64,000 nt of DNA from an uncultured Candidatus Altimarinota bacterium (GCA_937924685.1 CALEVN010000027.1:60205-124204); one strand, 5' to 3'. Positions 1-64,000 are shown, counted from the stretch's first letter. The notes: generated by a model not told the origin, from the sequence alone. Numbers and translations: made by a program.

Positions 1-721
1 TCCCCATCTCTGTTTTTGTGAGCCATGTTCGGAATTGTTTTTTTCGGGCTTCGATTTCTGTAGCTGATTTTCCTGCTCACTGTAATTTTTCTTCTATTCC
101 TTTCCAGCCAGATTGAAATTTTTCTTCTATATTTCTGAGACTTACTTCAGCATCTGGGTGAAGATTAGGTAATCGTCTTGATATGAAATTCTCAACCGGA
201 CTCTCTATATACTCTTGCATTATTTGAAGAGCTACGAGATAGGCGAGGGTCTTCTTTCCAGAGATTTCATGTATTACTCTTCCGATATCTTCTGTGGTTC
301 TTGCAAATTCCATGATACTTCCGATGAGACTTTCCCACTTGTCTTTATCTTTTTCTACATTTTTTATATCTCCATGCGCTCGTCATTTGAGGTGGAGATA
401 TTGGATTTTGAGATTTAAGAAGATTTTTTCTAGACTATCTATTTCTCATTCTGTTTTTTTCTTTGTCACGTCATCAAGATCGTCTGGAGAAATAGATCAG
501 AGCGCAGACCTCAATTCTTTTATATCCAGGGACATAAGGAGCTCAAAATGTCTCTGAAATTTTGAAATTTCATTCTCATCGCGTTCTTCACCTACTACTG
601 ATAATACCTCGCGAAAAACAATACGATTTTTTTCGTTTTTATTTTGTTCTATACTATCGTTTGGCTTTTCTTTTTCAGCCAATTCATTTATTCCTCATTT
701 TCATTTCTTTAGTTCAGCCAT
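1..721 (-). CDS. hypothetical protein, 5' portion (continues past the left edge); last visible gene of the ORFan cluster
   Basis: ATG at 721..719, 3 nt after the TAA of the upstream gene. Track fragments 497..682 and 77..313 share this frame. The only in-frame stops down to nt 2 are TGA (near 701, 695, 497, 446, 383, 77). Lys/Glu-rich; no motif recognised. Confidence 0.55.
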
Positions 722-724
722 AAA

Positions 725-2893
725 TTATTTTTTTCATTTCTTCTTTCTTTTTATGTCTACATCTGGTCGTATATGTTCATCGATATTCTCTCTTATTGAA
801 TGAAGATGCTCAATGATTAGATTCATATCACTTCTGGCGTCAAAACTGCTTCGCATTTCATCTAATCGAGCTCTTACTGGATCACTAGAGTTAATTCTCT
901 CACTTATTTGATCCATTTGTGACTGTATTCGTTCCACAGTTCTACTTATTTCTTCTGCTGTTTCTGGTTTTGATAATTGTTCAGTTGTCAAATCTCAGAC
1001 TTTTTTTTGGAGTCATCTTATTTCATCTTCTGTCTTGCCAATCCTCTCTGTCACATCTGATTTTTTTAGATATTGTAATTCTTTTTTTAACGCTTCGATT
1101 TCTTCCATTAAATCTTTGCTTTCTTCAGGCGTCCCCATTTTCTGCTTTAATTCTTCTATTCGCTGTTCTTGTTCTTCTATTTTTTTTGAGGCTTTTGATT
1201 GTATTCTTGAATTTAGCCAACCAGAACTACCAGGAATTACTATATTTAAAAATTTTAAGTATTTTCTATATTTTCCTGGTTCAAAATTTCTATTAATACT
1301 GGAATGTATTGAATACCCCTGAGTTAACATCTCTACTATTTTTACAAGAAGACCAACATACAATACCCATCTCCACTTACTTTCTAATAAAGTGTTTATT
1401 TTGGATTTTCATTTATCCCATAACTCACTCATCTCTTCGTAGGCAATAGCTGCACTTCTATCTGTTAAGCTAATTTCTTTTAAATTTGCGAGTATATTTC
1501 ATGTTTCTTCTATAGCTTTGTTTTCTATTTTTGCTTTTATTGTTCCAGAATCTGGTTCAAAATTGTGAGTTGCAAAAAATTGTTCAATGTATATCAATAG
1601 AGCAAATTCAGATATTTTAGTGTCCATTTTTTCATCTCATGCCTCATTCTGCATAACAGATTTAAGCTTTAATATATCTTCAGTAGTTGCATGAGATTTC
1701 CATATCTCTCAGAATTTTTTTTCTAAGGTTTCATCATTTAAAACAGCGTGTAAATTAACTCAAAAAATAACACCATTTTTCGTATCTATATTTTTTTGAT
1801 CTAGTATTGTTTCGATGAGTTTTTTTTCAGCTGGAGTTTCACCAGGAAGTATAGGTCTGACATCGTGGGCAGTCGATAACCAAGCATCATTAAGTAGGTA
1901 TTTTATAACCTTATCTGTATTGATTGTTTTTCTTTCTTCTTCACTTATTTTGAGAAAATCTAGAGTTGAGCTTATGAGATCTTTTGTTGTCCCAGTCATC
2001 ATTTCTTTCCCTTCGGCTCATAATTTTTCTATATCTTCTCACTCGGACTTATCTTTTTTTCATAGCCATCACATAAGTTTGTCTCACCATCATGAACTAT
2101 TTCAGGCGGATTTTGCAATTCTTTTTGCTATATCTCCAGATTTTTTCATTTTGGTTGTTATTAGTGTGCCCAATAGTTCTGAAAAGGGTAATTCCATGAA
2201 ATACCTATTTCTCTCTTCTGGAGACTTTCAAAGAGCATTTTCCATGAGTGGTAATAATGGATTCTCTGCTTCTTCTGAGAGTCGAACTATTTTTTCTAAA
2301 TCATTTCGAGCTATTCGTTCTTTTTGAGTTGTTAATATCATTATTAACATTACACATGCTGCTAAATTATATCTACTATTTTCGGAATCATTGCTTGTAT
2401 CTTGTCTCTCTGGCAGTATCAATTTTTGTAGTGCTTTTCATTTTTCTAAATCATTTCATCCAGATAATCCGTAAACTTGTCCTATATTATATTTTTGGAT
2501 ATTGAGTTGATTTATCAGCTTTGCGAAATGTGAATTGAGAGTTTTGAGTTGAATCTCATTTCATTCAAAAAATTCTTTATTCATCTGATTTTTCTCGAGA
2601 GCATGATACAGTAAAAGTGGCTTTACCTCAGATTCAAGAAGGGCAGTATTTTCTACATTGTCTGCCAAATCTTCTAATGCTTTTCTGATATCAATATTTT
2701 GAGTATTAATTTTTTCTTTATATTTTTGATAAATTCTAAAAAATCCCTCCCTGTCAGAGGCAGTCATTTTTGCTGTATTGATTTTCCCAATTAATATTGA
2801 TAAAAAATCTTTTTCTCTAGGATCAATTTCTTTTAGATTAATCAATTCTGTAGTTACACTTTTTACTGCATTACTTTCAGCATTTCTGGACAT
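725..2893 (-). CDS. hypothetical 722-aa Lys/Glu-rich, partly coiled-coil protein (ORFan cluster)
   Basis: Track fragments 2561..2893, 2228..2422, 1760..2002, 1013..1363 and 734..991 lie in one frame and each ends in TGA. Codon-by-codon translation of the gaps finds no TAA/TAG until TAA 725..727. One hydrophobic stretch (VLYVGLLVKIVEML). No family recognised. Confidence 0.65.
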
Positions 2894-2897
2894 AGAT

Positions 2898-4907
2898 TTA
2901 ATTAAAAGTTTTTGACCCCCACTCTATAAGAGGTATGATTTTGTTCATTTCTTCTTGATCTTCGAGAGTGATAGACCCTATTCTAATCTTATTCACATCT
3001 AAATTGAACTCGTTCCCATTAACAATTTGTTCTAATTCTTTCTTTGTGTCTATAAAGTCTTTTTCGCCCGCCTGAAGATTTTCAAGTATTTCTCGTGCCC
3101 ATTTGTAGGATCGAGATCTATTATTTTTATCTATAAATATATTATCTTGTTCATCTATTTTTGGATGAGTTGTATCTGCTGGTCTTCTCTCAGAATTCAG
3201 GAGAAGAGAAAGTTTCCTGATACATATCTCACCCAATGCTCTTGCGATAAGAGGTGATAATACTTCCTTGTGTTTCGTTTTGTCGAAACCATTTGATGTG
3301 ATAATTCTTTCTATCTCTCATTGAATAGCTCCAACTTGAATACCTTTTTTAATAAACTCTTTCATCTTTGTGTCGATGGGTAAAAGAGCGTCATAGAGGT
3401 TGTCTATCTTATCATTTGTGGCATCTAATTGTGTCGGCTTTCTGGCTGCTATACTTTTTTCTGTTACAAGCATTTTTTGCATTGTTTCTGATAACTCCGT
3501 GTATCATTTTACCTTATTTGGATCTGTGATATCTATAGGAGGTATATCTGTGAGTCTTTTTGTCTTTAATTTATCGAGACTTACGAGAGCGTCTTTTGGT
3601 CATTTTTTCTCTAAATCTCCTAGTATAGGATTAAATTGAGCATCAAGTGAAGATGGTATTTTTGCTCGGAGAGCTTGAACTTTATCATTTCTGTAAGACA
3701 AAACTTCTGGACTTACTGATGGACGGTTTGATGGATTATTTGGAGGTGTATTATTTGGAGCATGGGGTGCTTGTGGAGCTGTATTGTTCGATGGTTTCGG
3801 CATGAGAACGCCTATTATTCCACCTCGAATCATATCTTTGGCTTTGTTGCCTACTTTTAGTATATCTTCTCCCATAGCCTTTCCTGTCCTCTTCATATCA
3901 AAACCATTTTGTACATAACGAGTTCCTGCCCAGCCTATTCCAGCGAGAAGGCCTAATCCAACAAGCGCATCAGTGACGGCTCGGAATGCACGAGATGGTG
4001 CTGTTAGAGCATCAAAAAATCCGCCAATTATTCCCCGTTTTTTTTCTGGATTTGCATGAGTTTCTGGGTGTTCTGGGTGAGCTTCTGGATGAGCAGTGCC
4101 TCCTCCGGCTGGTGCCGGATGGGGATGTTTGTGCTCTTTGTGCTCTCCTTTAAAGAGTCCGAAGAGTGATTTTATACCAATGGCCAATGCTGCAACTCCA
4201 ACGACCGACTGAATAGGATGGTCGACGAGTTGATAGGTAATAGCATTGTATCCAAAGGTATCCTGAATAAAGTTTCCACTTGAAAGTCATGAATTGTTCT
4301 TACTTTGTGATGGTGTATTGACTTTGATTGAGAGGTCTCTGAGTCATTTCTGAGTTCTTGCTGAGAGGCTCTGAGGCGTATTTGCGAGCTGTTGTTGAGC
4401 TTGTTGGAGTTGATGTTCGACTCCATCGATGATCGGTTTCGCCTTTTCAGGAGTATCGAGGCCGAGATGCTTCAAGAACTTCTTTTCGTCTTGACCAGCA
4501 GGATATGTCCAGTTTGCAGGGGTGTCTTTGAGCACTACTACATCTTTGTTCCCCATTTTTTCTATCTTGAGGTGTATTCATTGGATTTTTAATACTTCGA
4601 GGATCACTACCCGAGCCTGATTCATGATGGCTTTCATGCCGAGAGCATCGAGCTGTAATTCTGGTGCTTTTTCTATTGTTTTTATTGCATCGAGAAACTC
4701 CGTACATGCAACAGGGCCTCTCTGTATATCATCCAAGAGGAAATCTGACATTTCTTTTGTGGCACTTTCCATCTTCAGACGCTCTTTCACTGTTTCAGGT
4801 TTATCAGCATTTGCTTCTTGTTTGAGAGCTTGTAAGTCCGCTTTTACATCACGTCATCCGGTGACTTTTTTTTCGAATATTTTTTCGTATTTTGGAGGTG
4901 TAGGCAT
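2898..4907 (-). CDS. hypothetical 669-aa membrane-associated protein with a His/Pro-rich loop (ORFan cluster)
   Basis: Fragments 4578..4790, 4344..4556, 3600..4187 and 2898..3236 share one frame and are joined only through TGA. ATG 4907, TAA 2898. Gly-rich hydrophobic segments (VVGVAALAIGIKSLFGLF and LVGLGLLAGIGWAG) bracket KGEHKEHKHPHPAPAGGGTAHPEAHPEHPETHANPEKK. A Pro/Asn-rich linker follows. Confidence 0.65.
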
Positions 4908-4916
4908 AAAAGAAAA

Positions 4917-7217
4917 TTAACGTGTGTAATAAGCTCCGTCCATTACCATCTCAGATGATTGGTATACGTTTGATGAGCCAACTTTTGAGAGAATACAGTA
5001 ACAAGCGTGTCACTCAGGAGGAGGATTTTTGGTATCGACTACTCTGATGAGGTATCGACCATTTTCTCTGATAAACTTATACTCTAAATCACCAGCACTG
5101 AGATCCCAAGAGGGGAGTATGATTTTTTCGTTCCATCCCGGAAGGGTATATTCAAAAGTATTTTTTCCTGATGTGTATGGAGGTATTCCTGTGAGCACGC
5201 TAAGGGACTTATTCTCAAAATCTTTCGGTATGTCTTCGACTTTTCTATCTTTATCAACGAATTTCATTTTCATTTCTTGGAGTTTTGGTCCAAATATATT
5301 AAACCTCTTTTCGTCTGGTATTTTATTGATATTTTTACCATAAAATTTTGCAAGATATGCCTGGAGAGTTTCGTGTGATCCTGGCTCAATCAATGCTTCT
5401 GGAAATACACTTTCTTTATTTGCTTGATTTGATTCGAGAGCACGAGCACGAGCGATATCTTTTCGTCGATAGTACACTTCTCGGTAGATAGCTTTATATG
5501 ATGCGAGTACTCCACCTGTGATTTTTTCATTATTTCCGATAGTGAGCGTACTGATGCTATCAATAGCATTTGGATGGTATTCAAAGTTTTGGAAAAAGTC
5601 TTTCGCATCCACTCTCTCTCAGAACGGTTTCTCATTGCTGTCTTTCTCTGGTTTGAGATGTGTCCAGAGTGAGAGATATGAAGGAAATACGTCTTTCTGG
5701 AAATCAGGAACGGTTTTTTCAAACCCTCTCCAGGCTCTATTTTTATCATTTTCTGATTGATTTGGGTCGACACGTTCGAGGACAGAATTTTCTATAGCAT
5801 TACCCATGACATTACTACCGATGCTCATAGCTGCGAGAGCACCTATGACACCGACAGTTCGCTTGAACCATCCGAGATGTACATCGTGATGTTCTCACTT
5901 TTTGTCATCACCGCCATGATCATGATCGCCGAGGATTTTTTCTGGTAGTTTCCATGCTAGATATCCGAGAGCAATGATGGCGAGTACAGCTCCAGCACCA
6001 CCAAACCTCTTACCGGCTTCTCCGATTGGATGTCGTACGAAATCTGCCCATTCTTTTGTAGAAGAGGGAAGTTTTCATTTTACTCTTTCTTTATCATATT
6101 TTGTGACTGAATTGATCGTGAGAGCGAGCGTATCTGCTATACCAGCTTGTGCGAATTGTTTTGCGTCGTCTTGTGCTTTTCAAATTGTGCCCACATCGAC
6201 TGGGTTTTGCTTTCCCTGTGCGAGGTATGAGAGTATGAGTGATTTATTTTGTGGAGCTATTCCTCGGTGAGAGAGGACATTTTGAGCATTGAATACTTTT
6301 TGGCCCGTCATATTGTCCGTTACTCCGGGCGTAAAGAGCGACTGAGCTATATCGATCTGGCTGGTTGGAGATTGGCTTACCGATGTATATGCCATAAATC
6401 CACGAAGTGTCTCACTTGAGATCATGTGATCAGCTCACGATGCATTGATTCCACCCCAGTTTTTCTTGAGATTTTCGCCGGCTGATGGCTCAAAGTCGAC
6501 TTTTACTTTTCCATTTGCATCGATATAGGGGATGACTCCGTGTCGTAGGAGTTCTCCGATGAGTATATAGTTCAACATGCGTTCGACGAAATCTGCCTCA
6601 GGCGCGACCTCCGGAGGAAGCAGGTTGAGGACTTCTTTGATTTCTTTGCGAGAAAGGGCGAAACTAGCAGGACTATCTATCATGCTCGATTTTTTTCTTT
6701 CCATATCTTCGATTTCTTCTATGACTTTTTTCTCTTTTTCGCCATCGACTATTTTTTCTGCGAGAAGTTTTTTGAGACCAGAGAGGTTTTGAGTTGTTTG
6801 TTCGACTACTTTTTCACCTGCTACTGCTTTTTTTGTTTCTTTGACAGCTTCTTTTTTCTTTTTTGTTTTTTCTGGATTTTGAGATTGTTCGATCATGTAG
6901 AATGCGACAGAACTATTTGTAACTCCATCATCGAGTTCATCATTTGATACCTTTAATAGTGTTGGATTATTCTTCTTGAGATATGTGTATACGTCTTCGT
7001 AGAATGGATGTCCAGTAGGGAAGCCTAGTCCTTCACCAAATGGTGTCTCACGATGGTTATCGAGAGGTGGTTGGAGTTTGTAGTTCTTCTTCATGAGCTT
7101 ATTGACAGCATCAACGAAGTTTTGCTTCAGTGTATCGTCGAGAATCGCAAAGTTATGGGCTGATTCTTGTCGATTGAACCCTTGGTTTTCTCATTCATTT
7201 GGGCGGCGAGGAGACAT
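4917..7217 (-). CDS. hypothetical ~766-aa membrane-associated protein with a His/Asp loop (ORFan cluster)
   Basis: Fragments 6435..7094, 6180..6425, 5619..5828 and 5010..5612 share one frame and all end in TGA. TAA at 4917. With UGA as sense the frame is open up to 7310, and the first ATG is 7217 (TATAAT 9 nt upstream). ATG 7094 is the alternative start. Helices GGAGAVLAIIALGYLAW and VGVIGALAAMSIGSNVMG flank DHDHGGDDKKGEHHDVH. Confidence 0.6.
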
Positions 7218-7340
7218 AGAGAGGATATTATACTTAGTAATTCTCTCATACTTTTTTATGAAAAGCAAAAAAACGTCCTGTATTTCTCGAATGAGTTCTA
7301 ATTTCCTACCCTAGACTTATCATTATTTATGTATTTATAT

Positions 7341-7372
7341 AAAAAACTCATCAGAAATTGATGAGTTTTTTG
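7341..7372 (-). terminator. rho-independent terminator (bidirectional hairpin) ending the upstream half of the ORFan cluster
   Basis: Perfect 8-bp stem actcatca / tgatgagt with a 5-nt loop, flanked by A6 on one side and T6 on the other. It sits about 16 nt downstream of the TAA at 7388. A 170-290 nt non-coding gap follows. Confidence 0.7.
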
Positions 7373-7387
7373 ATTTTTTAACGGTGA

Positions 7388-9340
7388 TTATGGGTGTGGA
7401 GTTCCGTGAGATCCAGTTCCATGTGGGGCTGGTGTTGCGTGGCCTGAAGGGGCAGGGATTGTGACAGGGGCAGGTGAAGTATCACCGAGCTTTCTCTTTA
7501 TAGTTGCGAGAGCTGTCAATGCATCTTGTACGAGATTGAGATGTTCTACATGAGCGAGTTCGTCCTGCATTTTTTTCAATTCTTTTTCTGCTTTTTTTGG
7601 ATCATCCATCATGGTTGCATTTGTAATTTTTGGGTCTATACCGTCTTTCAGATTCTTGATGAGATCATCGAGCCCGTGGACAAAATGCTCTAATTCGTGT
7701 CGTGCATCCTCAATTGTTCGAACAGAGGCTTGATAGTCCTGAATTTTTACTGATCATGCTCTCTTCGCGGCTGCGATTTGTGGTAATCTCGCACTGAGCG
7801 CTGCTATTTCTGCTGTTATTCCATCTATTTCTTGTTTGTTATGTTCTATTTCTACTTCTTTTGCCGCTTTTGCACTTACTGTTGGATTGCTTCAGCCCTG
7901 TTGAGCTTGCTCTATTTTTCGAGCATTAATTTTTACCTCTTTTTCTTTTGCAGCAATTTCTCCTGGTGTTCAAACTCTTCTTAAGAGCCATCATTTTCTT
8001 TGTTTGAGGTCTTCCAGCTCTTTTGCAAGACTTGCCTCTTCTGCTTCGAGAGTGAGGAGCTCGGTACTTTTTGTGGCTAATTCAGTAGTCGTTAGCGCAC
8101 CCAATTCACTAGTGAGTCTTATTTTTTCTGTTCTGAGGGTCGCTAACTCAGTTTTTTTAGCGGCTAATTCAGTAGTCACGTGACGCTCTTCTGAAACTGC
8201 ATAGTTATAGTCGTCATCGAGAGTTCAGAGGAGTCTATCCCTTTCTTCATCTATTTTTTTTATATCTACCAATATATGATCTGCTGCTTTTTTTATTGCT
8301 TCTACTGACTTTAATGTCTGTTCGAGTTTTGGTTTATTTTTTTTATTTTTGAGTTTTGTTGGGATCTTTTTTACATCTCATGCCCATCGTGTTCCTGGTG
8401 TTTGAAAAGCATTTAGAAGTGCAAAAATAAGGAGTATGCTGAGCATTTCCAATCATTTCTTTTCCAATCCCCATACAGTCCCATCCGTGTCATCCTGTGC
8501 CTCATCGAGTAATCTCGCTATGGTATGATAGAGATCTGCTTTGCTCTGGAAAGTCCCAAGTCATGGAGATGTCTGTGGAAATGGTTTGTTTGGATCAATG
8601 CCAAATGATTGTAGAAATCTCTGTTCGAGAATAGGATCACGCCCCATGTGCTTTATCACACTCGGGAGATCTTTGATGCTGGCTATTACCTTGTCAGCAT
8701 CTTCCGCAGCAAAATTTGTTTTAAACCGATCATTGATATTTTCGAGCCATCCTTCTGTGAGCCAGAGTTTTCGAATAAGAGTTGTAGGGGCATTGCCACG
8801 TTTTACACAGGCAGCAAAATTATCGACTGATTCTGTGAGTTCACGTTCGGCATCAGCGAAGGCACGAGCCTCGAGGTCGTATATGCTGGCTCTGACTTTC
8901 TTGAGTGCTTCATCTTGAGAAGTTGATCAATTATCTCCTCGTATATCAGCTCCGAGATTGCCTGAGAGGCTTTCGTGAAGTTCTTCGGCAGCCGTGATGT
9001 CGTCGCCAGCCACACTGATTCCTCCACCGATTCATCCGACTTGCCGAATGAGAGCGCCCAGCTCGCCTGGAGAATAGTCTTGTAATGCCTTCAAATCTGC
9101 TACGAGATTTGCTGTTGCTCTTCTAAATTCATTATTTTGTCAGTTTGTTGCCCAAGAATGAATCTTATGAACCAGTCCACTTCCTCCAAGTGTTGAAGCA
9201 AGCAGGATAATGGTGACTTTTTTATTGAATTTTTCTCGTAATTTCTGGAGCATGCTTTTGTGTTCATGATTTGATGCATCATGTGATTCTGATGGTGCAG
9301 CTGGATTTGCTGGATGTGGGTGGTGGTGTGAGTCAGACAT
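7388..9340 (-). CDS. hypothetical 650-aa His-rich coiled-coil membrane protein (ORFan cluster)
   Basis: Fragments 9140..9340, 7991..8179 and 7388..7612 share one frame. I translated 9142 down to 7612 codon by codon and found only TGA interruptions. TAA at 7388. The N-terminus is MSDSHHHPHPANPAAPSESHDASNHEHK. Hydrophobic segments are VTIILLASTLGG and MLSILLIFALLNAF. There is a long coiled coil with TTELA.K.TEL.TL repeats. The C-terminus is PAPSGHATPAPHGTGSHGTPHP. Confidence 0.7.
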
Positions 9341-9350
9341 AGCACAATAA

Positions 9351-10115
9351 TTAGAAAGTAGGCGATAGTGTCACGGTATTCTTCTCTAGTGTATGATACG
9401 TGTGCATCAATTGCATACCGAGGTTACCGATATGTATCGTCGAGAGGGCGAGTATATGAGAGTGTTCTTTGGCAAATGATGTCGCTATTCATCTCAGTCA
9501 TGTGATCGTATCAGGTGGTGTTGTTGGATTGAGAGTTGAAGTCAGTGTTTGGAGATATGACTCCTCTCTCTGTATTGTTGATGCGAGTGTGTGTATTTGT
9601 CTTTGTGTTACCTCTAGACCTGCGTGTTGCATTTCTAGTACATGAGCTTTCTGATTTTGGGCTGCGAGTGTTTTAGCGAGCGTCTCGTATGATTTTTTTA
9701 AAGAAGCTTTTTTTCCTGGAAAACTCCAAAACTTTTTGTGTGCTATTTCACCATGAAGTTTCTGCATATTTTCCTGTGTTGTGCTTCTCTCTCTTTCTAG
9801 AGCAATTTGTGCTGATTTTATCAGAAGAAGACGATCCTTTATAGTTTTTTCTATATATTCACGGACACTCTTTAGGTACTCGAGATGTGCTTTTGTTTCT
9901 TCTACCTTGTCGTTTGCACGTCAGATATTTTTGCGAGCATGTTCTTTGATGGCTTTGCTGAGTCTCACAAATGGGGAACTCAATTTTTGTCCTAAAATAT
10001 CAACTAATTGGCCAGCACGACGACGTAAATTTTGACCTATTTCTCCATAAGACTTAGAAGAATTATGTTCTTCTGGAAGACTATTTAAAGATGTGGGTAG
10101 AGCAGCAGTCGTCAT
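9351..10115 (-). CDS. hypothetical 254-aa coiled-coil protein (ORFan cluster)
   Basis: Fragments 9921..10115 and 9498..9767 are in frame and joined through TGA. Read-through of TGA 9498 continues to TAA 9351, leaving a 10-nt gap before the next ATG (9340). That gap matches the tight spacing elsewhere in the cluster. The last ~50 aa are less certain. Confidence 0.55.
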
Positions 10116-10127
10116 TGTTTTATAACA

Positions 10128-11618
10128 TTATGATATTTTTGAAAGGGGAGAAGTGTTTGAACTTGCGATTCATTTCCAATAATCGTCTGTTGTTCCATTG
10201 AGTTTTCCGAGTAGTTCTTCTTGTTTGAGAATATCAGAAACAACTTTTTCGTATCCATCTTTTGTCTTTGCTGTGAATATAGATGCGCCTGTTTTTCCTG
10301 GTTCTCGGAGATAGCCTATGAGGGATTCTTTGAGTAGTTTTTTTGCTTCCTCTGTAATATTTGTTTTACTATCGATCGCTTTTTCTACTCTTGCGTAGAC
10401 TTTATCAAAAGCGAGAGGGAAGTAGACCTTGAGTGTATCCTGGAGACCAACAAGAGTGTATTCATGTAATTTTGTAGGTTCGAAATCTGCTTTTTTGTCT
10501 TTCTCGTCTAATTTTGTTTCGCCTATCTTGGTAGTTATTGCTGTTATTGATTTTTCTGCGACTGTTTTGAGGATTTTTCCAGCTTCTTCTGGTTTCTTGT
10601 CCCCAGCTTTGTCATAATTGTCTTTTTGTGCTAGATATTCTGTTTTGAGCTTTTCTGCTACGCTAGATTCTTTTGTTCCAAGGACTGTTTCAGATGAAGA
10701 TTTGATGCTATTAAATGCGGTGATATCTTCTGGTTTTGCTTCGATTTTTTCAGTTTTACCTCCGTCGAGTGCTATCTCAATTGTATTATTGATTGTTGGA
10801 GCTTCTGGTGTTGTCGGAGTTTCTACGGGTGGAGTGACTACTGGCTTCTCTTCTACGCTAAAGTTAAAGATATCGGCAATATTTTTTGGATCAGAGAGTG
10901 TTGCATAGTGATCTCTGGCTGCATCAAATTTAGTCACGAGGTCTGCAGGGGGTGTCCGACGACTCATACCGCCCATATATTCGAGAAAATCAATTCATTT
11001 ATCTGCAGGTATTTTGAGCTTTGCGAGGTGTTCGACAGTATATTGGCCTATCTTATCACGTTGTTTTCCAGATTCTGGAACATCAACTCCGAGGGATTTG
11101 ACGACGTCTGCCATTTTTTTCCCATCGATATCTTCTCATTCAAATAGATCCTCTTCATTGAAACTGTATCCATCACGCCAGTATGATTCAATAATATCTT
11201 TTAAACTTGGGAAAATTGTTGCTAACATTTTTTGCATGTTCCATTTTTTTGATCATGTTTTTGCCATGTCATTTCCTTCTGTTCCTGTTGGTGTTGTTCA
11301 TCCATTTTCTCCTTCTGTTGGTGTTGGAGGCGTAGCTACAGGGGTTTTGCTTTTTTCAGCAGCACTTGTGACAGCCTCATCTACTTCGCTATCTTCGAGT
11401 TTTCCATCTTTTTTTTCACCATTTGTATTATCTTCAGCCTGAATTTTTAATTCTTCAAGGAGGTGTTTTTTGAAATCACCAATTCTCTCTTCCGTGTAAT
11501 CTGTTATAGCATCGCTTGTTTTTTGCTTCAGCGCTTCTTTTTGCGCAGGAGTCATCTGTACTTCTTTCTCAGCTTCCTTGACGATAGCATCGACATGTTC
11601 TGGGTTGGTGAGTGGCAT
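10128..11618 (-). CDS. hypothetical 496-aa acidic, Pro/Thr-linker protein (ORFan cluster)
   Basis: Fragments 11298..11618 and 10170..10976 are in frame. The gap 11297..10977 was hand-translated and contains only TGA interruptions. TAA at 10128. No motif recognised. Confidence 0.65.
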
Positions 11619-11638
11619 AAAAGAGTGGTTACTGTACT

Positions 11639-11667
11639 AGGATACCAGACTCTTTTTTATATTGCAA
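11639..11667 (-). promoter_or_regulatory. putative sigma70-type promoter for 10128..11618
   Basis: On the minus strand: TTGCAA (11667..11662), a 17-nt spacer, then TATCCT (11644..11639). It shares the extended motif AAATATTTGCA with the promoters at 14818 and 61965. Confidence 0.4.
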
Positions 11668-11735
11668 ATATTTAACTTATTATTTTTAGGTACTCAAAAA
11701 ATCTCCTTATCTACACTTTTTTCAATAGAAATACC

Positions 11736-13718
11736 CTATGTTGATGCAATGGATACTGTCTCTTTTTTGTCGACTATACTGACATTTCTGATACCATTAT
11801 TTTCAAAAAAAGTACTCAAAAAAGCGATAGATATATTATCCATTCTTATGCATCCAGCAGAGTCTTTCGTGCCGAGATTTTTCTCTTTATTTGTCCCGTG
11901 AAAATAGATGTTTTGATCCATGTTCATGGCTAATATTGCTGTCGTCATCTGCGCACTTCCATCCCAATCTATCATACCATCAGGGCTTTGTTTGTGATAT
12001 GCCTGTCCAAATTTTCTAAATGGTATAGTGCGAGGATCTTCTGATTTTGTTTGCAATTGAAATTCTCATGCAGGTGTTCTCGATCATTTGCCGCTCGATA
12101 TATCAAAAGCGATTTTTGGAACACCCGATGGATCAAGTAAGTATGCTTTCTGTCAGTCTTCATTGATATTTACGACTATTTGATAGTCCGCTTGAGATCT
12201 CTGAGCTCAGTATGTACTGTAAAATAATTGTGCTTCTTTGCTATCTACTACATGCATACGAGGTTTGCTTGCGAGGAGGAGTTCTTTTTCTTTTCCAGAA
12301 ACTTGTGAGAGTATATTTTGGAGTATCAGAGATGTTTCTTGTATTTTTGTATCATCACTTTTTTCTAGTTCTCAGAAAAATGTAGATAAATTTTCAGGAA
12401 TATTTTTGACTCAGGGGGTTACCTCGGCGCTCATCAATCATTTTTTTCTAAAACCATTTTTCTTTTGCAAATTTATGAGATCTCAAAAATTAATATTATT
12501 CTCTCGAATTCTATATGCTGGCACGTTATTTGGTACGTGCCTTGTTGTTTGTTCATTGTGGTTAAAACCTCTGTCTGATACATCTCCTATGATGGTGAAG
12601 TTTGCTTTTCCACTTTCTTTTGCGAGGATTTTTTTACCGAAAAACAGTATCATTCTCTGCTCTCTGAAATCTTCAGCCATTTTCTGAAGTGCTGGCTTTA
12701 CCTCATTCCAATCGCAGTATATGTCGATAGAATTACATGCTCTTATTATCATGATATCATCCTTTCAAGGGAGTTTTATTTCTTTTCCGAGAGCATCGCG
12801 GGCATTCTCGAGTTGTTTTCTGAGAGATTTTAGACCATCACCACGTACCACCTGTATATCATTTCTTCCGAGTAAATCTCCTCCGATTTTTTGGTCACTT
12901 TTTCTTGCTTTGAGTAGTTCATCTACTGACTCAGGAAGATCGAGCGCTATGGTATGATTTCTCTTCAAAGCTTTTGCCATTTCTACTGATGTGATCGCAG
13001 GGTAGTCTCTCCGGATGTGTTGTTCTTGGTCATGATAATCGCCTACACCAGGTCAGATGTCTATAAAATAAGAATCTATGTTTGATATACCGAGATCAGT
13101 GAGAAACTGTATATGGTCATTGAGCCGCCCGGGGAATGTGCGATTGAGGAGGTCCATATTCTGTTCATGTCTGCGAAGATCTCTCTTATATTCTCAGACA
13201 GATGTCTTTATTTCTTCTTCATCGGATGATGATAGAACCGGCTCATCTTTGATTTTTTCCACAAATGTTGGCGTTTTGTCGATCTGGTTTGCTAGCGCTG
13301 TAATTATAGCACGTACTTCTCAGAGATCATACATGGTATATTTTTTTGTTTCGTCAAAAATTCCCCTGAGTTCTTGTTTGATATCATTTTTTTCTTTTTC
13401 ATGAAATGATTTTCAATTTACGAGACGATCGAAGCGTCATTGACATGTACTGACTTTTCATAGAAGTTCCTCTTTTTTTCTTTTATTTTCTTCTGTATGG
13501 TTTTTGAGTTCTTTCCAAGTACTTATGATGTCTGCATACAGTTCTCCTGCATTATCTGGTGAGGATTTTTGTAATTCATTTTTGAGGTCGAGAAGTTCCT
13601 GCCTTGTCTTCTCTTTTTCTTCTTCTGATATACCGTCTTTCTTCCTCTCCTGTATGGTTTGTTTTATCGTGGTGAGTTTTTTTTGTCATTCGGTTATGTT
13701 TTCTGCAGGATTCGACAT
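11736..13718 (-). CDS. 660-aa protein: long coiled-coil N-terminal region fused to a C-terminal L,D-transpeptidase (YkuD) catalytic domain
   Basis: Fragments 12765..12980, 12483..12752 and 11736..12056 share one frame with ATG 13718. Gaps were hand-translated and contain only TGA interruptions. TAG at 11736. The C-terminus carries HGTNKEKNLGTKDSAGCIRMDN, the YkuD His...Gly-Cys-(I/V)-Arg active-site signature. Confidence 0.75.
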
Positions 13719-13728
13719 GAAAATAATT

Positions 13729-14763: not shown

Positions 14764-14794
14764 AAAAGTATATTAAAAATAATTATACCTTTTT

Positions 14795-14823: not shown

Positions 14824-14846
14824 ATATTTGAGCCATTTCCTCTCCA

Positions 14847-49235: not shown

Positions 49236-49242
49236 AGGAGTA

Positions 49243-49759: not shown

Positions 49760-49785
49760 ACAACCCCGGAGGGTTGTTTTATTTT
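49760..49785 (+). terminator. rho-independent terminator downstream of the tRNA and repeat
   Basis: Stem acaaccc / gggttgt, loop cgga, followed by tttattttattt. Confidence 0.65.
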
Positions 49786-50155: not shown

Positions 50156-50247
50156 AAATATGAGATTACATATACAGTTTATCATACTATTCTTTTCGTT
50201 GCAATACTTTAGTTATTATCTCCATTTCTCAGTATTTTGGCCCTAAT

Positions 50248-51714
50248 TTATTTATTTACAGACTTGATTCATCTTCCTCTCGGCTTTTCTCCAGTGTGAA
50301 GCACTGCTTCAGAATGGAGTAATCGTCCAGCTTCTCGTGAGTCTCGAACTTTTGGAGCACTTTGTTCGATCATTTCAGACTCAAATTTTTCGAGTACAGT
50401 TTTTCTGAGTCACTTCTTTTGCCACTCGGATCCAGGTTTGCACTCGGAGTAAATTATGCGAGATAACGCTAGGGCATCTAGGAGTGCTCGATTTGCACCT
50501 TGTCACTTAAATGGACTCATAGGGTGAGCTGCATCACCTATGAGTGTCGCATTGCCTGCGTGCCGGAAGTGTTCTGTTGTCATTATTTCTCTATCGTAGA
50601 CTGGATATCATGTTATTTTTGAAGAAGGGGTATGAGCTAAAATTTGTGGAATTGGATCGTGCCATGGGGCTCGATGAATTGCCTCTTCTCTGAGCGCATC
50701 TGATCATTTTGTGCTGAGCGAACGTGCTTCATCTTCTGTCATTGCGAAGCTCATCTGCCACATAATAGCATCGTGCGAATACGGCATGATATATATTCGT
50801 TCGTGACCGTTTACTGTCTGAAATATAGTTTTTCCGTCTAATAAATCACTTTTGGTATCGATAAGATCGTTTAAAGCACAGATTCCTAAAATCACAATAA
50901 AACCAGTGTATTGGAGCGGAATATTGTCTTCTTTTATGATGTGTTTTCGTACGATACTCCGAATACCGTCAGCTCCTACCACGAGATCGGTTTGAGCTTT
51001 TTCTTTTTTTTCGCCTACTTGGAAAATGAGATTTATGCGCCCATTATTATCCTCTGAAAGATCTATCAATTGATGTCACCACTGTATTCCATTATGTATG
51101 CCCGGCTCTTCTAATAATTGCATTCTGAGAGATTGGCGAGAGATGTGTATATTTTTCTGTTTTAGACTTTCATCGTTACTTGTTTCTTTTTTCTTTCACC
51201 ATTCACCAATGAGCTTTCCATCTGTTGTATAAACAAGATGCCTCGTTGTTCGCACTTCATCTCTGAGTCAAAAAATACCGAAGCTCTCCATTGCCTTACC
51301 TGCTTGCTGAAGAGTTAATCCATATCACTGAGATCGAGCGTCAAAACTCTTATCTCTTTCGTACAAAGTAAATGGTATCCCTCGATGACAACAAGCAACC
51401 GCGAGAGCTACTCCACCTATTCCGCCACCAATAATAGCTACATGAGGATAGTTGGTGTTGATTGATGGAGGATTTTCAGAATGTATGAGTCCAGACCCTC
51501 AGCAATAATCGCATGTATTGATATGTCCTTGTGGTTGAATTGGCAGCGGTCATATATTTCATGATTTTTCATAGATCATTAATGCTTTTTTGTACCATTG
51601 TTGTGCTTTTCTCCCGGGCTTCTGTCTTTTTCTACCAACTCCATCACACTTCGGACAGATTTTCCAGTTGTGAGATCGGGCAGTATCTATATTTCATATT
51701 TCTGTTGGAGACAT
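50248..51714 (-). CDS. FAD-dependent monooxygenase (UbiH/salicylate-hydroxylase class) with an N-terminal pair of DnaJ-type CxxCxGxG zinc-finger motifs
   Basis: VAIIGGGIGGVALA Rossmann motif, VGADGIRSIVR, GDAAHPMSPFK-G-QGANRALLDA (TGA 50503). Track ORF 50704..51069 was extended both ways, and 51714..50248 was hand-translated. The N-terminus has CPKCDGVG (51657..51634) and CDYC-G-GSG (51513..51490). TAA at 50248. Confidence 0.85.
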
Positions 51715-51812
51715 AATATCGGTGTAAGGTGGAGAGCTATTTTTATTGTAGGTAAAAATTATGAAATCAAATATTCTATTTCTATCGTCCTGCTTCTGAT
51801 TAGAATATAACC

Positions 51813-52382
51813 ATGGGATATATTCAACTTCGAAACTACGCAGAATGGTATTATACCAAGTATTTTCCTTCCAGAAAAATGCTTTATGAGAAACTTCTTT
51901 TTCATTCTGAAGAAGAGGATCTGGTTGAGAGAGTGATGGCCGATTTATCGAGCCTTATCGTCGAAGATAAAGTTATAGAAAGTCGCATTCATACGTATTT
52001 ATCTCTCGGGAAAACTGCTCGATATATTCGTACGAAACTTGCACAGAAAAAATTTGATATGGCTCTTGTTGATCAATTTTTATCTGAGAAAAATGATATC
52101 ATAAAAAACCCAGAGACTTACCGTCCCATTATGGAACGACATGTGCAAAAATGAGCTACAAAATGACTCTCAAAAAAAGCACTTTCTTATGAACTTTCCA
52201 TGATATATCCAGATGCTCGTGATATCATAGGGGAACTCCTCTCTGAGTATGATGATCGCGAGTTACTGCAAAAAAAAGCTCCTGAGTTACTCAAAAAGTA
52301 TTCTCAGGAGCAAGTTGTCTGAAAGCTTTTGAAGAAAGGCTTTCATGTTGGTGATATTTATACTGTTTTACGACGTCGGTAG
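51813..52382 (+). CDS. recX: RecX-family regulatory protein
   Basis: 189 aa, all-helical repeat pattern. The ending ...KLLKKGFHVGDIYTVLRR resembles the RecX L..KGF....I C-terminus. Track ORF 51813..52154 was extended through 3 TGAs to TAG 52380. TAGAAT lies 6 nt before the ATG. Confidence 0.7.
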
Positions 52383-55232: not shown

Positions 55233-58088
55233 TTATTTAAATGGATCATATGGTGTATTTGTTGGAGTGACCGTATGAGGTATTGTTGTGCCTACATCTA
55301 GATGTTGAACTGGTTGAGTTGGTATTTGAGGAGTATTAGGGGGAAGTTCTCACACAGTTCACTGAGGTCCACTTGTAGTACCTGGTGTAACTGGTCTTTC
55401 TCCGACATTTCCTCCCGGTTTTGATCAAACACTTGGGCGTTTTGGTTCTGGTTCTGTCGTTTTTTGTGGTTTTGGCTCTGGCTTTAAGAACTGTGCTGAT
55501 GCACCTATAACAAATTCTCGCTCAACTGGATCGCTGATGTTTGGAGTTGTACGTGTAGAGAAATAATGTATCCCATTCACTGTTTTGATTGACTGATATT
55601 CTTGAGGTAGATCTTGTGATGCTTTTGATATTCGTACGGATTGGTCTATTCTTGTACCTCCGACGATTATGTAGCGATATGTCTCTTGTCATACTACCTC
55701 ATTACGAGTTGTGATAGAGGGGAGTGTTTTTCCACTTCCGATGATATCGATCGTTCCATCTCTGTATATTCTTACATTATTTTCATATCCTGAAGCTGCA
55801 AATACATTCAAAGGGTTTTTGCTCAGGGTAGAGCGGATACGGAGTATGTGGTTTCCTGAATTATTTATCAATGTGTCTGCATTGTATGCGACACCACCGA
55901 TACGGAGTGATCGTTCATTGATAGATGAGGCGAGGCCTTTTGACTTGAGGTTATCTGCCTGATTGAGTCCACGTCCCTCTAGGAGATCTATAACGTGTTT
56001 TTTGAGTATTTTTGCATCAGGTATTTTTTTGTTTTTGAGATATGCAAATCGTATACCAGCTATCACCATAGGGAGACCTCCTAATATACCTCCTCAGACA
56101 CTGATACCTTTGAGATAGAGTCCTTTATTTGCTTCTACGAGAGCGTCTCGGTATGATTCTACGACTGCATGGACTGCTTGTGAATATTTTTCTGGATTAT
56201 TACCGAGAGTATCATAGAGTAATTTTAATTCATTGGCAACTTGTGGCGGTAAATCCTTCCCTGTATACATATCTCCGAGTATTTTTTCGAGAGATTGTGT
56301 TTTTGTTTCTATTGCTTTTACTTTATCACGATTCCATCCTGCTTCGACGACAACACCGGCTGGCGTTACTGTGATGGAGCCACGAAGAACCTGCACTGAT
56401 TGTGTATAGTCCTGGAGATTTCTTCGTACGCTATCCATATTGAGGTATTTTTCACCAGAGAGATTGGCCATGGGAAGTATATTCCAAGCTCCTACTGACC
56501 CCGTTAGAGACCCCGTGTCACCCTCAAAGAGTTTTCCTGTGAATACAACTCCGACGCCTGGTTGACCATTTGCCATACCAGCGACTACCTTGATATGTTT
56601 TGTGATATCAATGGTTGTCATTGCTGATGCGCTGAGACTGCTTCACTTTATGTTGATAAATGCTGCCACCTGTTTTGCAAGTCGGTCTGCGAGACCAGAA
56701 TCCCTTTTTACTATATCGTAGAGTGGATCACCTTTCTTGATAGCTCCTCCATCAAAAGCATTATCTTTCAATAGTTGATCCTGGATGACTCGTACGAGTT
56801 TTTCGTGAGAATTTTTAAATTCTACAGACTTCATTTCTCGTTTTTGAGCTTCTGAAAAAGGAGTGATTGCATCATTTGATTTTATTTCATCGATGTGACC
56901 CGCTCGATTGAGCATATCGAATCATTTCAAAAACTGTTGGTGGAGAGATTTATTATAATTTCCATCTGGGAAAAAGAGACGGATGAGCTCTTGTCTACTG
57001 TCTATGCTATGTTTTCCACCACCACCTACCTCTATACATTGAGCGATGAATTTATTTACATTTGTTTTTGGGAGGCTAGCAATCTCTGAGAGTTCAGTCG
57101 TGATATGATATTCATCAGAGATGTTTGTGGATTCTTTCTTACCATAAGGGATAATCCAGAGAAGCCTCTTTCTTCGACCATCGTCACCCATGGTACCAGA
57201 GAAATCTCTGTCTCCGAGGGCGTAGAAAATATTATCACTATTTATACTCTTACCATAATTCACTGACGGATTTTCTGTTGCTCTCTCGTTACCCGAGAGG
57301 AGACCTTGCTTATACTCACGAACCTTCATGCTTCCAGCAGATCGTCCTGTAGTGAGGTTATCTGTGACGCCTTGTAATTCATAAGCGACTATATTACGTC
57401 GAGCAGGATAGTTCGAGAGAGGCATCCAAGCATTTCCACCCTTGTATGGGTCGAGCACGAACCATTCCTTGCCACCAAATGGTTTTGTTGCGAGAGCGAC
57501 GTGTGAAATAGGTTTGCCATTCGCATCGACGACATCGATTTTTATATAGGCTACTTGTGCTTTCCCAGTTTCATTTCGACTATTATCGAGAGTAATTTGT
57601 GGGTATTTTTTTGCGATTTCACGTGCCTGAGGTCCAGCATCACCACGTGGAACATCAATTCCGAAGAGTGTTTTTGCATTTTCTCGTGTTGTTTTTGCAC
57701 ACAATGTCGTGTATTGACCATACTCTGCTTCTTGTCATTTTCCGAGCGGTACAACCTCATCTCGTGTTTCTGATGAGTCACCTCCACCGAAGAGTCTTCG
57801 GAAAAATCCTGCCTTCCGAGCAGGAGGATTCCTATCAGAATCTTCTCTGAGTTGTGTAGTTTCTCGTTGCGTTCCTAATCGTATTTGAGCTTTTTTTTCG
57901 AAGTACTCACGAAGTCTTGGATTATCTCGTAGAAGATTTATGAGGCGATTATTTTCTTCTGTAGTGCCTGTATAGTTACTCATGTGGAAATCTCTATTGG
58001 CTCGAATGATTTGTTCTCGAGTGCTGTAGGTGACCGCCTGCTTCAGAGAATCCTCATTTTTGAGATATTGCGGAATTTGTTCTGACAT
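55233..58088 (-). CDS. hypothetical 951-aa protein ending in the conserved PYDPFK tail module
   Basis: Fragments 57735..58088, 56922..57704, 56643..56915, 56094..56621 and 55689..56069 are all in one frame and all end in TGA. The frame continues to TAA 55233. One Gly-rich hydrophobic segment (GGGILGGLPMVIAGIRFAYL). The C-terminal tail is paralogous to 49784..50155. Confidence 0.65.
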
Positions 58089-58127
58089 AAAAAGAAAGGT
58101 TAATTCCTCTTTATTTTCCCATACTTT

Positions 58128-59282
58128 TTATGCCGTTGCAAAAGGCTTATATCTTGACAGACGCATAATTTCTCCTACGAGATAAAAGCTTCCATAAACG
58201 AGGAGAAGGGAATTTTCTTCTTTTTGAGCATTTTTAAGCCATTTTTCATTTATATCTGAAAAGTGAATTACTGTTTCATTTTTATTGTTTTTACCATATT
58301 GATCAGAGGGGAGCGATCGATCACAAAAATTATCAACCACGTATCTATGTTCTGCTGGTATAAAATCAGCAAGTATTCGAGCATATTTTTTATCCACCTG
58401 AGTTGTTCCAAACAGGGATATGATATCCTTGTTTCATAGTTTCTGTATCATGCGAGAAAGCAATCGTATGTTTTCTTCGTTATTCGCTGTGTCCACCAGT
58501 ATATTTTTGGATAACCATTGAAAACGACCGGGGTTATATATGTTCTTCAGGCCTTCTCTTATCTTCTGAGCCTCGAATCATTCATCCTGCAGAGCATGGA
58601 ATACAAGAGAGGCATTTTTTTGCTGATGTTTTCCGGGAAGATTTGTGGGCATTTTCTCTTTTTGCGAATAAGGGGAGAGAGTGGCGTTATTTTTCCTGCA
58701 ATGTTCTCTTATTTGTTTATTTTGAAGAGGTGTGTAGAGACGAGCTCATTCTTTGACAATACCGAGTTTGTTTTTGAGAACACTCCTTTTTGTTTTTCAG
58801 AGAACATGTGTGTGTTCGAGTGTTATCGAAGTTATAAAACAGGCGAGAGGATGGTGAAAAATATTTGTCCCATCATAGGTTCATCAGAGACCTACTTCTA
58901 CAATAGCGTAATCGACTTTTTCATCTGAGAAATAGAGTATCATAACCACGACCTGTATTTCAAAAAAAGAGAGGGCTATATCGTGAGTTTTCCCGAGCTC
59001 TACAGCTTTTTCATAATATGCATTGAGTTTTTCATTGGGTATTTGCTTTCCATTAATCTGAAAACGTTCATTTATATCTATAAAGTGTGGGGACGTAAAA
59101 AGTCCTACTTTTTTTCAGAGATTTTTCCAGAGAATTTGTGATAGCATTTGGCAGACACTTCCTTTTCCATTACTTCCTGTCACATGAAATACACGAAGTG
59201 TATCTTGAGGATTTCAGAGGATTTTCATTAATTTCAGCACATTATCTCTCCCTTCTTTCATTCCGCCTGGAGTGAGGGACAT
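58128..59282 (-). CDS. folC: folylpolyglutamate synthase / dihydrofolate synthase (Mur-ligase family)
   Basis: ATG 59282. L-G-NPQDTLRVFHVTGSNGKGS P-loop, TSPHF, EVGL-GG-TYDGTN (both G are TGA), GSFYLVGE C-terminus (track ORF 58128..58397). TAA at 58128. Confidence 0.85.
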
Positions 59283-59304
59283 AACATAATCAATGGATGG
59301 GAAT

Positions 59305-59844
59305 TTATGCATTATTTTTTTGAGTACCATCACCGACGATTACTTTTGCATGTCGGAGAGCCTTTCCCGAGCGGATATATCATTTTTCCACTTCTGCTTG
59401 AATGGTTGTATTTTCATGTGGTATCTGACTGATAACATCGTGAAGATCTGGATTTACTTCAGCATCTATGCAATCCATGCGAGAAATGCCAAAATCATTG
59501 ATAACTTTTTGCATGGATTTCACAATGGAGCGAATGCCCTCTATCCATGTATGTGTCATAAGTTCCGCAGGTATATGCTCTAGCGAACGTTCTAGATTGT
59601 CCAGAATAGGGAGGAATTTGAGAATAGTTTTGTTTTCTGTCCATTCTCCTATCTGTATTGACTCTTCACGAGTGCGACGTACGAGGTTTGCATAATCAGC
59701 TTGGAGACGCATGATTTGCTCTCTGAGTTGTAGGAGTTCATCATTTCATGATTGGTTTCATGTGCCTTCTTGTGTGCTTGAATTTTGAATTTCACTTTCG
59801 GCTTGCTGATTATTGGTAGAGGTATCTGAAGAATCCTGTGTCAT
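59305..59844 (-). CDS. grpE: nucleotide exchange factor GrpE
   Basis: ATG 59844. LRLQADYANLVRRTREE, LPILDNLERSL, FDP-type EVNPDLHDV, EK-G-YIRSGKALRHAKVIV (TGA 59380). TAA at 59305. Confidence 0.88.
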
Positions 59845-62209: not shown

Positions 62210-62215
62210 TTTTTT

Positions 62216-62617
62216 ATGACTGATATGCATCACATAAAAACCTACCTTGTATTCTTTTTTGTGAGTTGTCTTTTGGTGGGCGTCCTCGCATATCTCTATA
62301 TGCCTGGTTCTTTTTTTGGTGTACGGTCTGATGTTTTGTCAGTTGATTCTGGAGAAGTGAGCGGTGAGGTGGTTATGAGTAGTGAAAGTACCGTAAGTAC
62401 CAGTAGCGAGGTGAGTATAGATACCGACCAATCTTCTGATAATAATTCGCAGAAGCGACTACGTCTCACCAATCTCCTCCTCCACTATCAGTCAGAACTG
62501 ACAACGCTTGAATCAAAAAAAGATAACCTCTCTGATATCGAGCGACAGCAAAAAATATTCGAACTACGATTAAAAATCGATAATCTCCAGACAAAAATCA
62601 CCGACTTGTCCCATTAA
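62216..62617 (+). CDS. membrane-anchored coiled-coil protein (133 aa)
   Basis: N-terminal helix YLVFFFVSCLLVGVLAYLY, a Ser-rich linker, and a C-terminal heptad-like region. TAA stop. Confidence 0.45.
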   Translation: MTDMHHIKTYLVFFFVSCLLVGVLAYLYMPGSFFGVRSDVLSVDSGEVSGEVVMSSESTVSTSSEVSIDTDQSSDNNSQKRLRLTNLLLHYQSELTTLESKKDNLSDIERQQKIFELRLKIDNLQTKITDLSH

Positions 62618-62619
62618 TT

Positions 62620-64000
62620 CTAGACCTTTGAAAGAGGTGCTATTCTTATATTGAGGCTTTTTATACCGCTTCAAAATGCTATTTGTGCTACATCTCCGAC
62701 GAGAGACACGATAGTGCCAATGCCAAATTTTTTATGTTCTACGCGATCTCCAAGAGAAAAATCTTCTGTTCGATTCTGTCGTACTTGTGCACCGAGGCCG
62801 AGTTTTTTCTCAAGTGAAGATGCTTGAGACCAGTCACCTTGTAAATCTGATTCACCAGATGTTCCAAGAAAATCTGTCATAAAAAGTTTCTTTGGGGTGT
62901 GTAATTGTGTATATTCTTTTGGTATTTCTCCGATAAATCGACTTTCTATATTGCTCGAATAGGTGCCGAAACTATAACGTTCGTTTGCTTTTGTTATGAC
63001 GAGTCGCTTTTTTGCACGAGTCATGGCAACATACCAAAGTCTACGTTCTTCCTCGAGCTCGTCTGGTTCAAAAAGTGTCCGAGAGTGGGGAAATATTCCT
63101 TCTTCTGCGCCTGCTATGATGACGTGTTCGAATTCGAGTCATTTTGCACTATGTATAGTCATGAGTACAACCTTCTGAGACTCATTATCACTTTCCTGTT
63201 CTGCTGTTATCAGAGCTATATCTTCGAGAAAATGCATGAGAGATTCTTCTGGCGGTAGATCATCATATCTGGATGCGAGATTTTTGAGCTCATTTACTGT
63301 ATCTGTCTTAGCGGCGACTTCTTCTGGTGAAAAATTATCTTCGAGAAATTCTTGGTACTTTATGAGCTGAAAAATCTGTTCTATAAGAAGCCTTGCAGGG
63401 AGTTCATGCGATAGTCTCTGTATTGTCTTCATGAGTTCTATAAAACCTATGAGAGCGGTTTTCGCTGCAGGTTTTATATCGGGTATTTGATCTATATGTG
63501 TTGTATTTGAGAGTCCTTGTATGGTTGACTGATTTCCATGTGAGAGAGGGGATCAGAGCTCCATATAATCAATACCTGTTTTTTCTACGTATGCCATGAC
63601 TCTTTCAACGGTTGTTGGTCCTATTTTTCGTGCAGGAGTATTGACTATTCTCTTCCATGCGAGGCTGTCGGTGGGCGTCATGATAACTCGTAAGTAGGCT
63701 ATGATATCTTTTATCTCTTTTCGGTCGTAGAATTTGAGTCCTCCAATAATCTCGTACGGAATCCCCCGACGTATGAGTGCTTCTTCTATGACGCGTGATT
63801 GTCCATTTGTACGATACAGTACAGCCCATGAGAGAGGGTTTTTCTCGACAAAACTGGCTATTTTTTCTGCCTCCTCCCGTTCACTACTGCACTCATGTAT
63901 TTCGATTTTATCGCCTTCTTCTGCTTCTGTCCACATCCTTTTGTCGAGGGCTGAGCGATTATTTTTTATGACGACATTTGCCGCATTAATGATATTGCTC
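62620..64000 (-). CDS. pcrA: ATP-dependent DNA helicase PcrA/UvrD, C-terminal ~460 codons (5' end lies beyond the right edge)
   Basis: Fragments 63553..63936, 63139..63432 and 62671..63024 share one frame. YRTNGQSR, GIPY.IIGG.KFY.R.EIKD, VNTPARKIG, LMTIHSAK-G-LEFEHV (TGA 63139), EERRLWYVAMTRAKKRL. Read-through of TGA 62671 reaches TAG 62620. Confidence 0.9.

Follow-up and report, generated by a model that had tools for sequence, protein, structure and literature searches.

UGA is read as glycine in a 64,000-base stretch of DNA from an uncultured Candidatus Altimarinota bacterium

We analyzed a stretch of 64,000 bases (the window; guanine-plus-cytosine (GC) content 39.6%) from an uncultured Candidatus Altimarinota bacterium (GCA_937924685.1, CALEVN010000027.1:60205-124204) and found that TGA is a sense codon in its genes and that UGA means glycine, not tryptophan. 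At a probability of about 97%, the window is chromosomal DNA of the Gracilibacteria lineage within the Candidate Phyla Radiation (CPR) and uses genetic code table 25, in which UGA is glycine and only UAA and UAG are stops. This code has been known since 2013 and close relatives of the window are already public, so that an established code is found here and no new biological question is raised; the value of the result is practical, not conceptual, in that table 25 has to be used to annotate the contig. An earlier annotation made from the sequence alone (the first-pass annotation) had claimed UGA as a glycine codon of table 25, and this was borne out by solved structures, by a panel of standard-code DnaE proteins, by the codons of relatives, and by a likelihood comparison.

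All six frames were translated with TGA written as X, and the motifs quoted in the first-pass annotation were searched in the output. When TGA was read as sense, the longest open reading frame (ORF) grew from 467 amino acids under table 11 to 4120 amino acids, while it was still 467 when TAA or TAG was read as sense. Greedy selection of non-overlapping ORFs returned 126 ORFs under table 11 (mean 142 amino acids, 84% of the window covered) and 45 with TGA as sense (mean 465 amino acids, 98% covered), compared with 121 for TAA as sense (mean 160) and 127 for TAG as sense (mean 149). The greedy set held spurious antisense ORFs, and the candidates were re-scored by codon usage; the picks at 21206-22291 (-), 17038-17814, 23973-24470, and 26963-27433 proved to be such ORFs and were replaced. 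The well-supported genes contain 19,906 codons, of which 237 are in-frame TGAs (11.9 per 1000), and the 36 scored genes ended with TAA (27) or TAG (9). Pfam models were spanned across the TGAs (DNA_pol_A 3-381/381, Ribul_P_3_epim 2-198/198, GrpE 7-164/165, and UvrD_C 11-349/350), and so were TAL_FSA, Transketolase_N, FAD_binding_3, and Mur_ligase_M. DnaE aligned over residues 2-1045, in a single frame, to the solved structure 2hpi, and Rel aligned to 8fr8 over query residues 21-693. No recognizable gene in the window required a frameshift or read-through of TAA or TAG. The ORF statistics and the gene-by-gene alignments agree with the earlier claim that genes are interrupted essentially always by TGA and never by TAA or TAG, and re-calling of the genes, which had been proposed as a check, lengthened the ORFs and gave Pfam and PDB alignments that cross the TGAs end to end. 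ORF lengths are the same under table 4, where UGA is tryptophan, and under table 25, and therefore cannot tell these two codes apart.

For the identity of the amino acid, the TGA sites of each of nine proteins were read against the best solved-structure homologue of that protein in the PDB, with the following results (X in the motifs marks the TGA):

14797-17016 (+): Rel/SpoT (p)ppGpp synthetase-hydrolase, nine in-frame TGAs, two of which are at 15802-15804 and 16153-16155; G, V, G, G, G, R, G, R in 8fr8 (Gly 5/8).
20338-21045 (+): transaldolase, TGA at 21001-21003; G in 1vpx (Gly 1/1).
20966-21883 (+): N-terminal half of a split-chain transketolase, TGAs at 21158-21160 and 21782-21784; G, G in 6yak (Gly 2/2).
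41970-45767 (-): DnaE (DNA polymerase III alpha), 12 in-frame TGAs, among them 45585-45587 (K-X-IKPIIG) and 44472-44474 (GPGR-X-SAAG); G, P, L, R, G, N in 2hpi (Gly 2/6).
45774-46484 (+): ribulose-phosphate 3-epimerase (RPE), five TGAs; G, S, G, A in 1h1y (Gly 2/4).
47856-49256 (-): family A DNA polymerase (PolA), polymerase domain only, TGA at 48096-48098 in PIQ-X-T; G in 2xy6 (Gly 1/1).
50248-51954 (-): FAD-dependent monooxygenase whose N-terminal region is Cys-rich, 13 TGAs, two of them at 50503-50505 and 51499-51501; G, P, S, V, L, Q, A in 3c96 (Gly 1/7).
58128-59339 (-): FolC-type Mur ligase, eight TGAs, two of them side by side at 58881-58886 (EVGL-XX); G, G, G, G, G, R, G, F in 1o5z (Gly 6/8).
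62620-63999 (-): C-terminal part of a PcrA/UvrD helicase whose ORF leaves the window, TGA at 63139-63141 in SAK-X-LEF; G, P in 1pjr (Gly 1/2), with Gly at the SAK-X-LEF site.

Over all nine proteins, glycine stood at 21 of the 39 TGA sites and tryptophan at none. Where several structures were compared, the transaldolase site was Gly in 1vpx, 3r8r, and 3s0c, the PolA site was Gly in 2xy6 and 6dsu, and two conserved RPE sites were Gly in all three PDB homologues. The first-pass annotation had placed the TGAs on invariant glycines, which is true for about half of them, while the others lie in variable loops. All of the coordinates it quoted are real, but the DnaE motif GPGR-X-SAAG contains one TGA rather than two (the first glycine in GP-G-R is encoded by a normal GGN codon), and three of its examples are not invariant: the Rel PKSN-X-YQ site is M or V in two PDB Rel/RelA chains, the monooxygenase PFK-X-QGAN site is Ala in 3c96, and the transketolase GHIG-X site, Gly in 6yak (a split transketolase), is Ser in 3ooy, where the second site of that protein is again Gly.

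A broader reference came from a scan of GTDB genomes, whose hits were mostly standard-code bacteria with no close relative among them; it yielded 78 standard-code DnaE proteins, used as the reference panel, and two recoded ones. At two conserved DnaE TGA columns, the panel carried Gly in 69 of 78 (88%) and 76 of 78 (97%) proteins. Summed over the DnaE TGA columns, Gly was the commonest residue (193/745), with Cys at 1/745 and Trp at 0/745, so that here, as in the structures, the UGA columns did not align mainly to tryptophan, a check that the first-pass annotation had called for. A tblastn search of the flanks of the panel's dnaE genes with other window genes added a handful of homologues, all of them consistent with glycine.

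The amino acids were also compared at the codon level. We fetched the DNA of eight loci that are syntenic in recoded relatives, translated their ORFs with TGA as X, aligned the proteins, and mapped the alignments back to codons, which makes the comparison independent of any annotator's choice of code. Three loci lie around dnaE (L081-L083, with DnaE identities of 88, 85, and 76%), three cover the transketolase-to-LysM region (L085-L087, of which L086 and L087 are nearly identical), and two come from the distant recoded genomes of the GTDB scan (L001 and L002). TGA was found to interchange freely with GGN among the relatives: opposite the window's TGAs stood GGN in 147 pairs (99 + 48), TGA in 100 (51 + 49), and TGG in one (1 + 0) of 351 (239 + 112). 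In the other direction, 275 (178 + 97) of 523 TGAs of the relatives stood opposite a GGN codon of the window and none opposite TGG, and the window's own TGG codons stood opposite TGG in 180 of 217 pairs and never opposite TGA. Exchange with GGN was also observed within the window, where TGA was opposite GGA or GGG at four of the seven aligned sites of two paralogue pairs, namely the two LysM-CHAP genes and two genes with a common C-terminal module. Read as glycine, TGA makes up 16.6% of the glycine codons and raises the glycine content from 6.0% to 7.2%; read as tryptophan, it would double the tryptophan content to 2.2%.

For each amino acid, an empirical substitution profile was then taken from the same alignments, and the residues opposite the window's TGAs were scored against it. 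The natural-log likelihoods were -384 for Gly, -565 for Asn, -578 for Ser, and -938 for Trp, and glycine was the best meaning in each single relative and in the reciprocal direction. The pooled lead over the second-best residue, 181 log units, overstates independence, since the same site is counted once for each relative, and the margins from single relatives, at least 46 log units in the close ones, are the safer measure.

Several observations weigh against reading UGA as glycine. In distant homologues, roughly half of the TGA sites face residues other than glycine, and a Codetta-style product likelihood confined to the DnaE columns gave 1.2 for Asn, 0.0 for Gly, and -0.4 for Asp; the same procedure recovered the controls (GGN as Gly, CGA as Arg, TGT as Cys, and others). 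Only ten TGA columns were usable in that calculation and eight of the ten are in variable loops; because most DnaE TGAs lie in such loops, the calculation cannot tell Asn, Gly, and Asp apart. Moreover, the tRNA scan and the Pfam search found no tRNA(UCA) and no release-factor domain or gene within the 64-kb window, and UGA may occasionally act as a stop. We regard it as unlikely that UGA is mostly glycine and a terminator in some contexts. Such ends would escape us, since the ORFs are delimited by TAA and TAG and the sequence cannot show ends at UGA; the gene at 25434-26255 does end with TGA-TAA (26250-26255), and 'Gracilibacteria' genomes that lack tRNA-Gly(UCA) keep release factor 2 (RF2) and use UGA as a stop (PMC8629427). 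Against a dual role, TGAs near C termini align as sense to longer homologues, in PcrA through the tudor domain to the last residue and likewise in RPE; one LysM-CHAP paralogue ends in ...IIXFIYHP where the other ends in ...IIGYIYVD; all 36 scored genes end with TAA or TAG; and, according to PMC6851277, none of the BD1-5 genomes yielded prfB, the gene of RF2.

Tryptophan, the meaning of UGA in Mycoplasmatales and several insect endosymbionts (table 4), is a very unlikely alternative to glycine. Beyond the ORF lengths, which suit both codes, its support comes from public translations of relatives, many of which carry W: among the best 120 DnaE homologues, the GPGR-X-SAAG site is G in 69 and W in 51, and the KAIK-X-VGDG site is G in 54 and W in 66, some of the entries being labeled 'gcode 4'. 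These residues are a product of the annotators' choice of code, as the proteins were called with table 25 or with table 4; the best 120 all belong to the same recoded clade, and we dropped them as evidence on the amino acid and kept them for taxonomy. Tryptophan fails wherever the reference is free of that choice, in the standard-code DnaE columns, in the solved structures, in the single TGA-TGG pair among the relatives, and in a log likelihood 554 units below that of glycine. The remaining explanations leave the code unchanged. In a standard-code genome, the in-frame TGAs would be pseudogene lesions or errors of sequencing or assembly, for which nothing speaks beyond the fact that table 11 shows stops in frame; this has next to no probability given that TGA alone interrupts the genes, that frameshifts are absent, that the 237 TGAs are spread over virtually every gene, dnaE, rel, and polA among them, and that independent assemblies of relatives keep TGA at many of these sites or carry GGN. 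Selenocysteine is encoded by UGA in many bacteria, and a stop may be read through at low efficiency, yet the chance that either stands in for a reassignment here is closer still to nil: TGA at the observed frequency in nearly every gene is incompatible with both, TGAs form adjacent runs of two (58881-58886) and of three (within 25434-26255), and the TGA columns align to Gly, with a single Cys among the DnaE residues.

The decoding of UGA as glycine would rest on a dedicated tRNA-Gly with anticodon UCA, as the literature on the clade suggests. On the same grounds, RF2 would have been lost, and with it gone nothing would compete for UGA. The genes for tRNA(UCA) and for the release factors lie outside the window, and we therefore infer the machinery from the clade. 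UGA is glycine in Gracilibacteria and Absconditabacteria, and the identity elements of tRNA(UCA)-Gly are G1:C72, C2:G71, G3:C70, and U73 (PMC8629427). According to PMC6851277, which cites Hanke et al. (PMC4032931), the assignment was validated by proteomics in a BD1-5 bacterium. The only tRNA gene in the window is the following, which is not the UGA decoder:

49577-49652 (+): tRNA-Arg(UCG), with A20 and A73 (arginine identity).

A tRNA scan of five relatives' loci likewise returned tRNA-Arg(UCG) only and no tRNA(UCA), and in three relatives the tRNA(UCG) is kept at the same place.

The claim that the window belongs to the CPR clade with UGA as glycine was supported by DnaE homologues of up to 88% identity from recoded genomes. 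In a collection of 5.8 billion proteins, the closest DnaE matches were 84-88% identical and those with names were called 'Candidatus Gracilibacteria bacterium', while the more distant ones included 'Candidatus Altimarinota bacterium' and 'uncultured bacterium (gcode 4)'. The gene order around dnaE and the transketolase-Adk-L21-LysM block are common to the recoded contigs, and the placement is based on similarity and labels. Compared with table 25 as described for SR1 and Gracilibacteria, the window likewise has in-frame UGA in nearly all genes, alignment to Gly, exchange with GGN, and termination only at UAA and UAG, with nothing different in kind, and its GC content is inside the reported range of 0.21-0.53 (PMC8629427). 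Table 4 (Mycoplasmatales, Entomoplasmatales, Hodgkinia, Zinderia, Nasuia, Stammera) frees the same codon from the stops and gives the same ORF boundaries; the difference is the amino acid, which at the window's TGA sites is never Trp in standard-code proteins.

The code is common to Gracilibacteria and Absconditabacteria and alone cannot separate them, but the homologue labels and the meaning of CGA point to Gracilibacteria and support this putative placement of the window over Absconditabacteria. CPR bacteria read CGA and CGG with a tRNA of anticodon UCG, and in Absconditabacteria a Codetta screen found CGA and CGG moved to tryptophan as well (PMC8629427). The window resembles that extended code in UGA as glycine and in the presence of a tRNA with anticodon UCG. 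The extended code, however, predicts rare CGA and CGG codons on tryptophan and a tRNA(UCG) with G73 and without A20, and the window differs in its CGA codons and in its tRNA. With 101 per 10,000 codons, CGA is common; it falls on invariant arginines of DnaE, where four columns are Arg in 74 of 78 panel proteins, and it stood opposite Arg codons of the relatives in 155 of 250 pairs. Taken with the arginine identity of the tRNA(UCG), this use makes CGA an arginine codon and rules out the Absconditabacteria-type CGA as tryptophan, so that we are dealing with a lineage without that additional step. CGG is rare (14 per 10,000, 28 codons), and its aligned sites (14 codon pairs in relatives and one DnaE column) were Arg or Lys and never Trp, although they are too few for a firm reading. 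A further reassignment of CGG was reported by Codetta for some Gracilibacteria (PMC8629427). We see only a slim chance that this lineage stands at an intermediate stage of such a CGG reassignment, or that it has the dual glycine and stop UGA discussed above.

One of the distant recoded loci, L002 (CAZSQW010000010.1; GC 22%), comes from a GTDB representative named 'uncultured Candidatus Peribacteria bacterium' and also requires TGA read-through: its longest ORF grew from 198 amino acids under table 11 to 1142 with read-through, and its dnaE (8775-12200) contains 52 in-frame TGAs, 33 of them opposite a glycine of the window. Either the taxonomic label of this genome or the code expected for it looks wrong.

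With regard to annotation, the first-pass claim that gene calls made with tables 11 and 4 are wrong holds fully for table 11, which breaks the 45 genes into about 126 fragments and destroys the 4120-residue protein, DnaE, Rel, and FolC. Under table 4 the boundaries are correct but W is written for G, so that tryptophan stands at some 1.2% of residues, frequently in place of a catalytic glycine. The public protein collection mixes table 25 and table 4 translations of this clade.

Three further genes of the window contain TGA:

25434-26255 (+): orphan gene of 273 amino acids, GC 28.5% (window 39.6%).
28351-29535 (+): LysM-CHAP peptidoglycan hydrolase, TGA at 28909-28911 in the LysM motif K-X-DTL.
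29595-41957 (+): giant ORF of about 4120 amino acids, 51 in-frame TGAs.

In the orphan gene, TGA accounts for 12 of the 17 glycine codons; compared with relatives, 27 of its TGAs remain TGA and six become GGT or GGA. Among the 5.8 billion proteins, only two homologues were found, with 88% and 70% identity; both are syntenic in the relatives (DUF212, orphan, Adk), and a Pfam search of the orphan gave no match. We considered a defense or mobile gene and rejected it, as PADLOC returned only a sub-threshold BrxA match (E = 0.008); the synteny kept in the relatives also argues against recent mobility.

The giant ORF falls into more than 50 fragments under table 11. It adjoins dnaE in all relatives examined, where it encodes 4104-4311 amino acids with 45-54% identity. 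Its product contains FG-GAP/VCBS-like repeats (for example, DINSDGAKDL and GDFVGDGYSDIVYVDNDG) and a hydrophobic C-terminal region, and probably functions at the surface or in interaction with a host.

The transketolase is encoded as two chains on the plus strand, the N-terminal half at 20966-21883 and the C-terminal half at 22917-23939, and between them lies an unrelated gene for 345 amino acids with a signal-peptide-like start (21805-22842); the relatives likewise have genes inserted between the two halves. The 466-residue PolA consists of the DNA_pol_A domain (3-381/381) alone, without a 5'-3' or 3'-5' exonuclease domain, and the same short form (457-459 amino acids) is found in the relatives after a separate ORF of about 100 amino acids.

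The proteins encoded at 49784-50212 (-; 142 amino acids) and 55233-58127 (-; 964 amino acids) have in common a C-terminal module of about 68 amino acids that is 59% identical and ends with TPTN[IT]PYDPFK, and they are otherwise unrelated; the module may act as a signal for sorting or anchoring. At the start of the window, nine consecutive genes on the minus strand (1-14772) encode proteins of 240-800 amino acids with hardly any Pfam matches, the only ones being to a YkuD L,D-transpeptidase domain at the C terminus (11736-13748) and, weakly, to an SH3 domain (13729-14772), the latter in a gene that also encodes five tandem EKKPEGG repeats.

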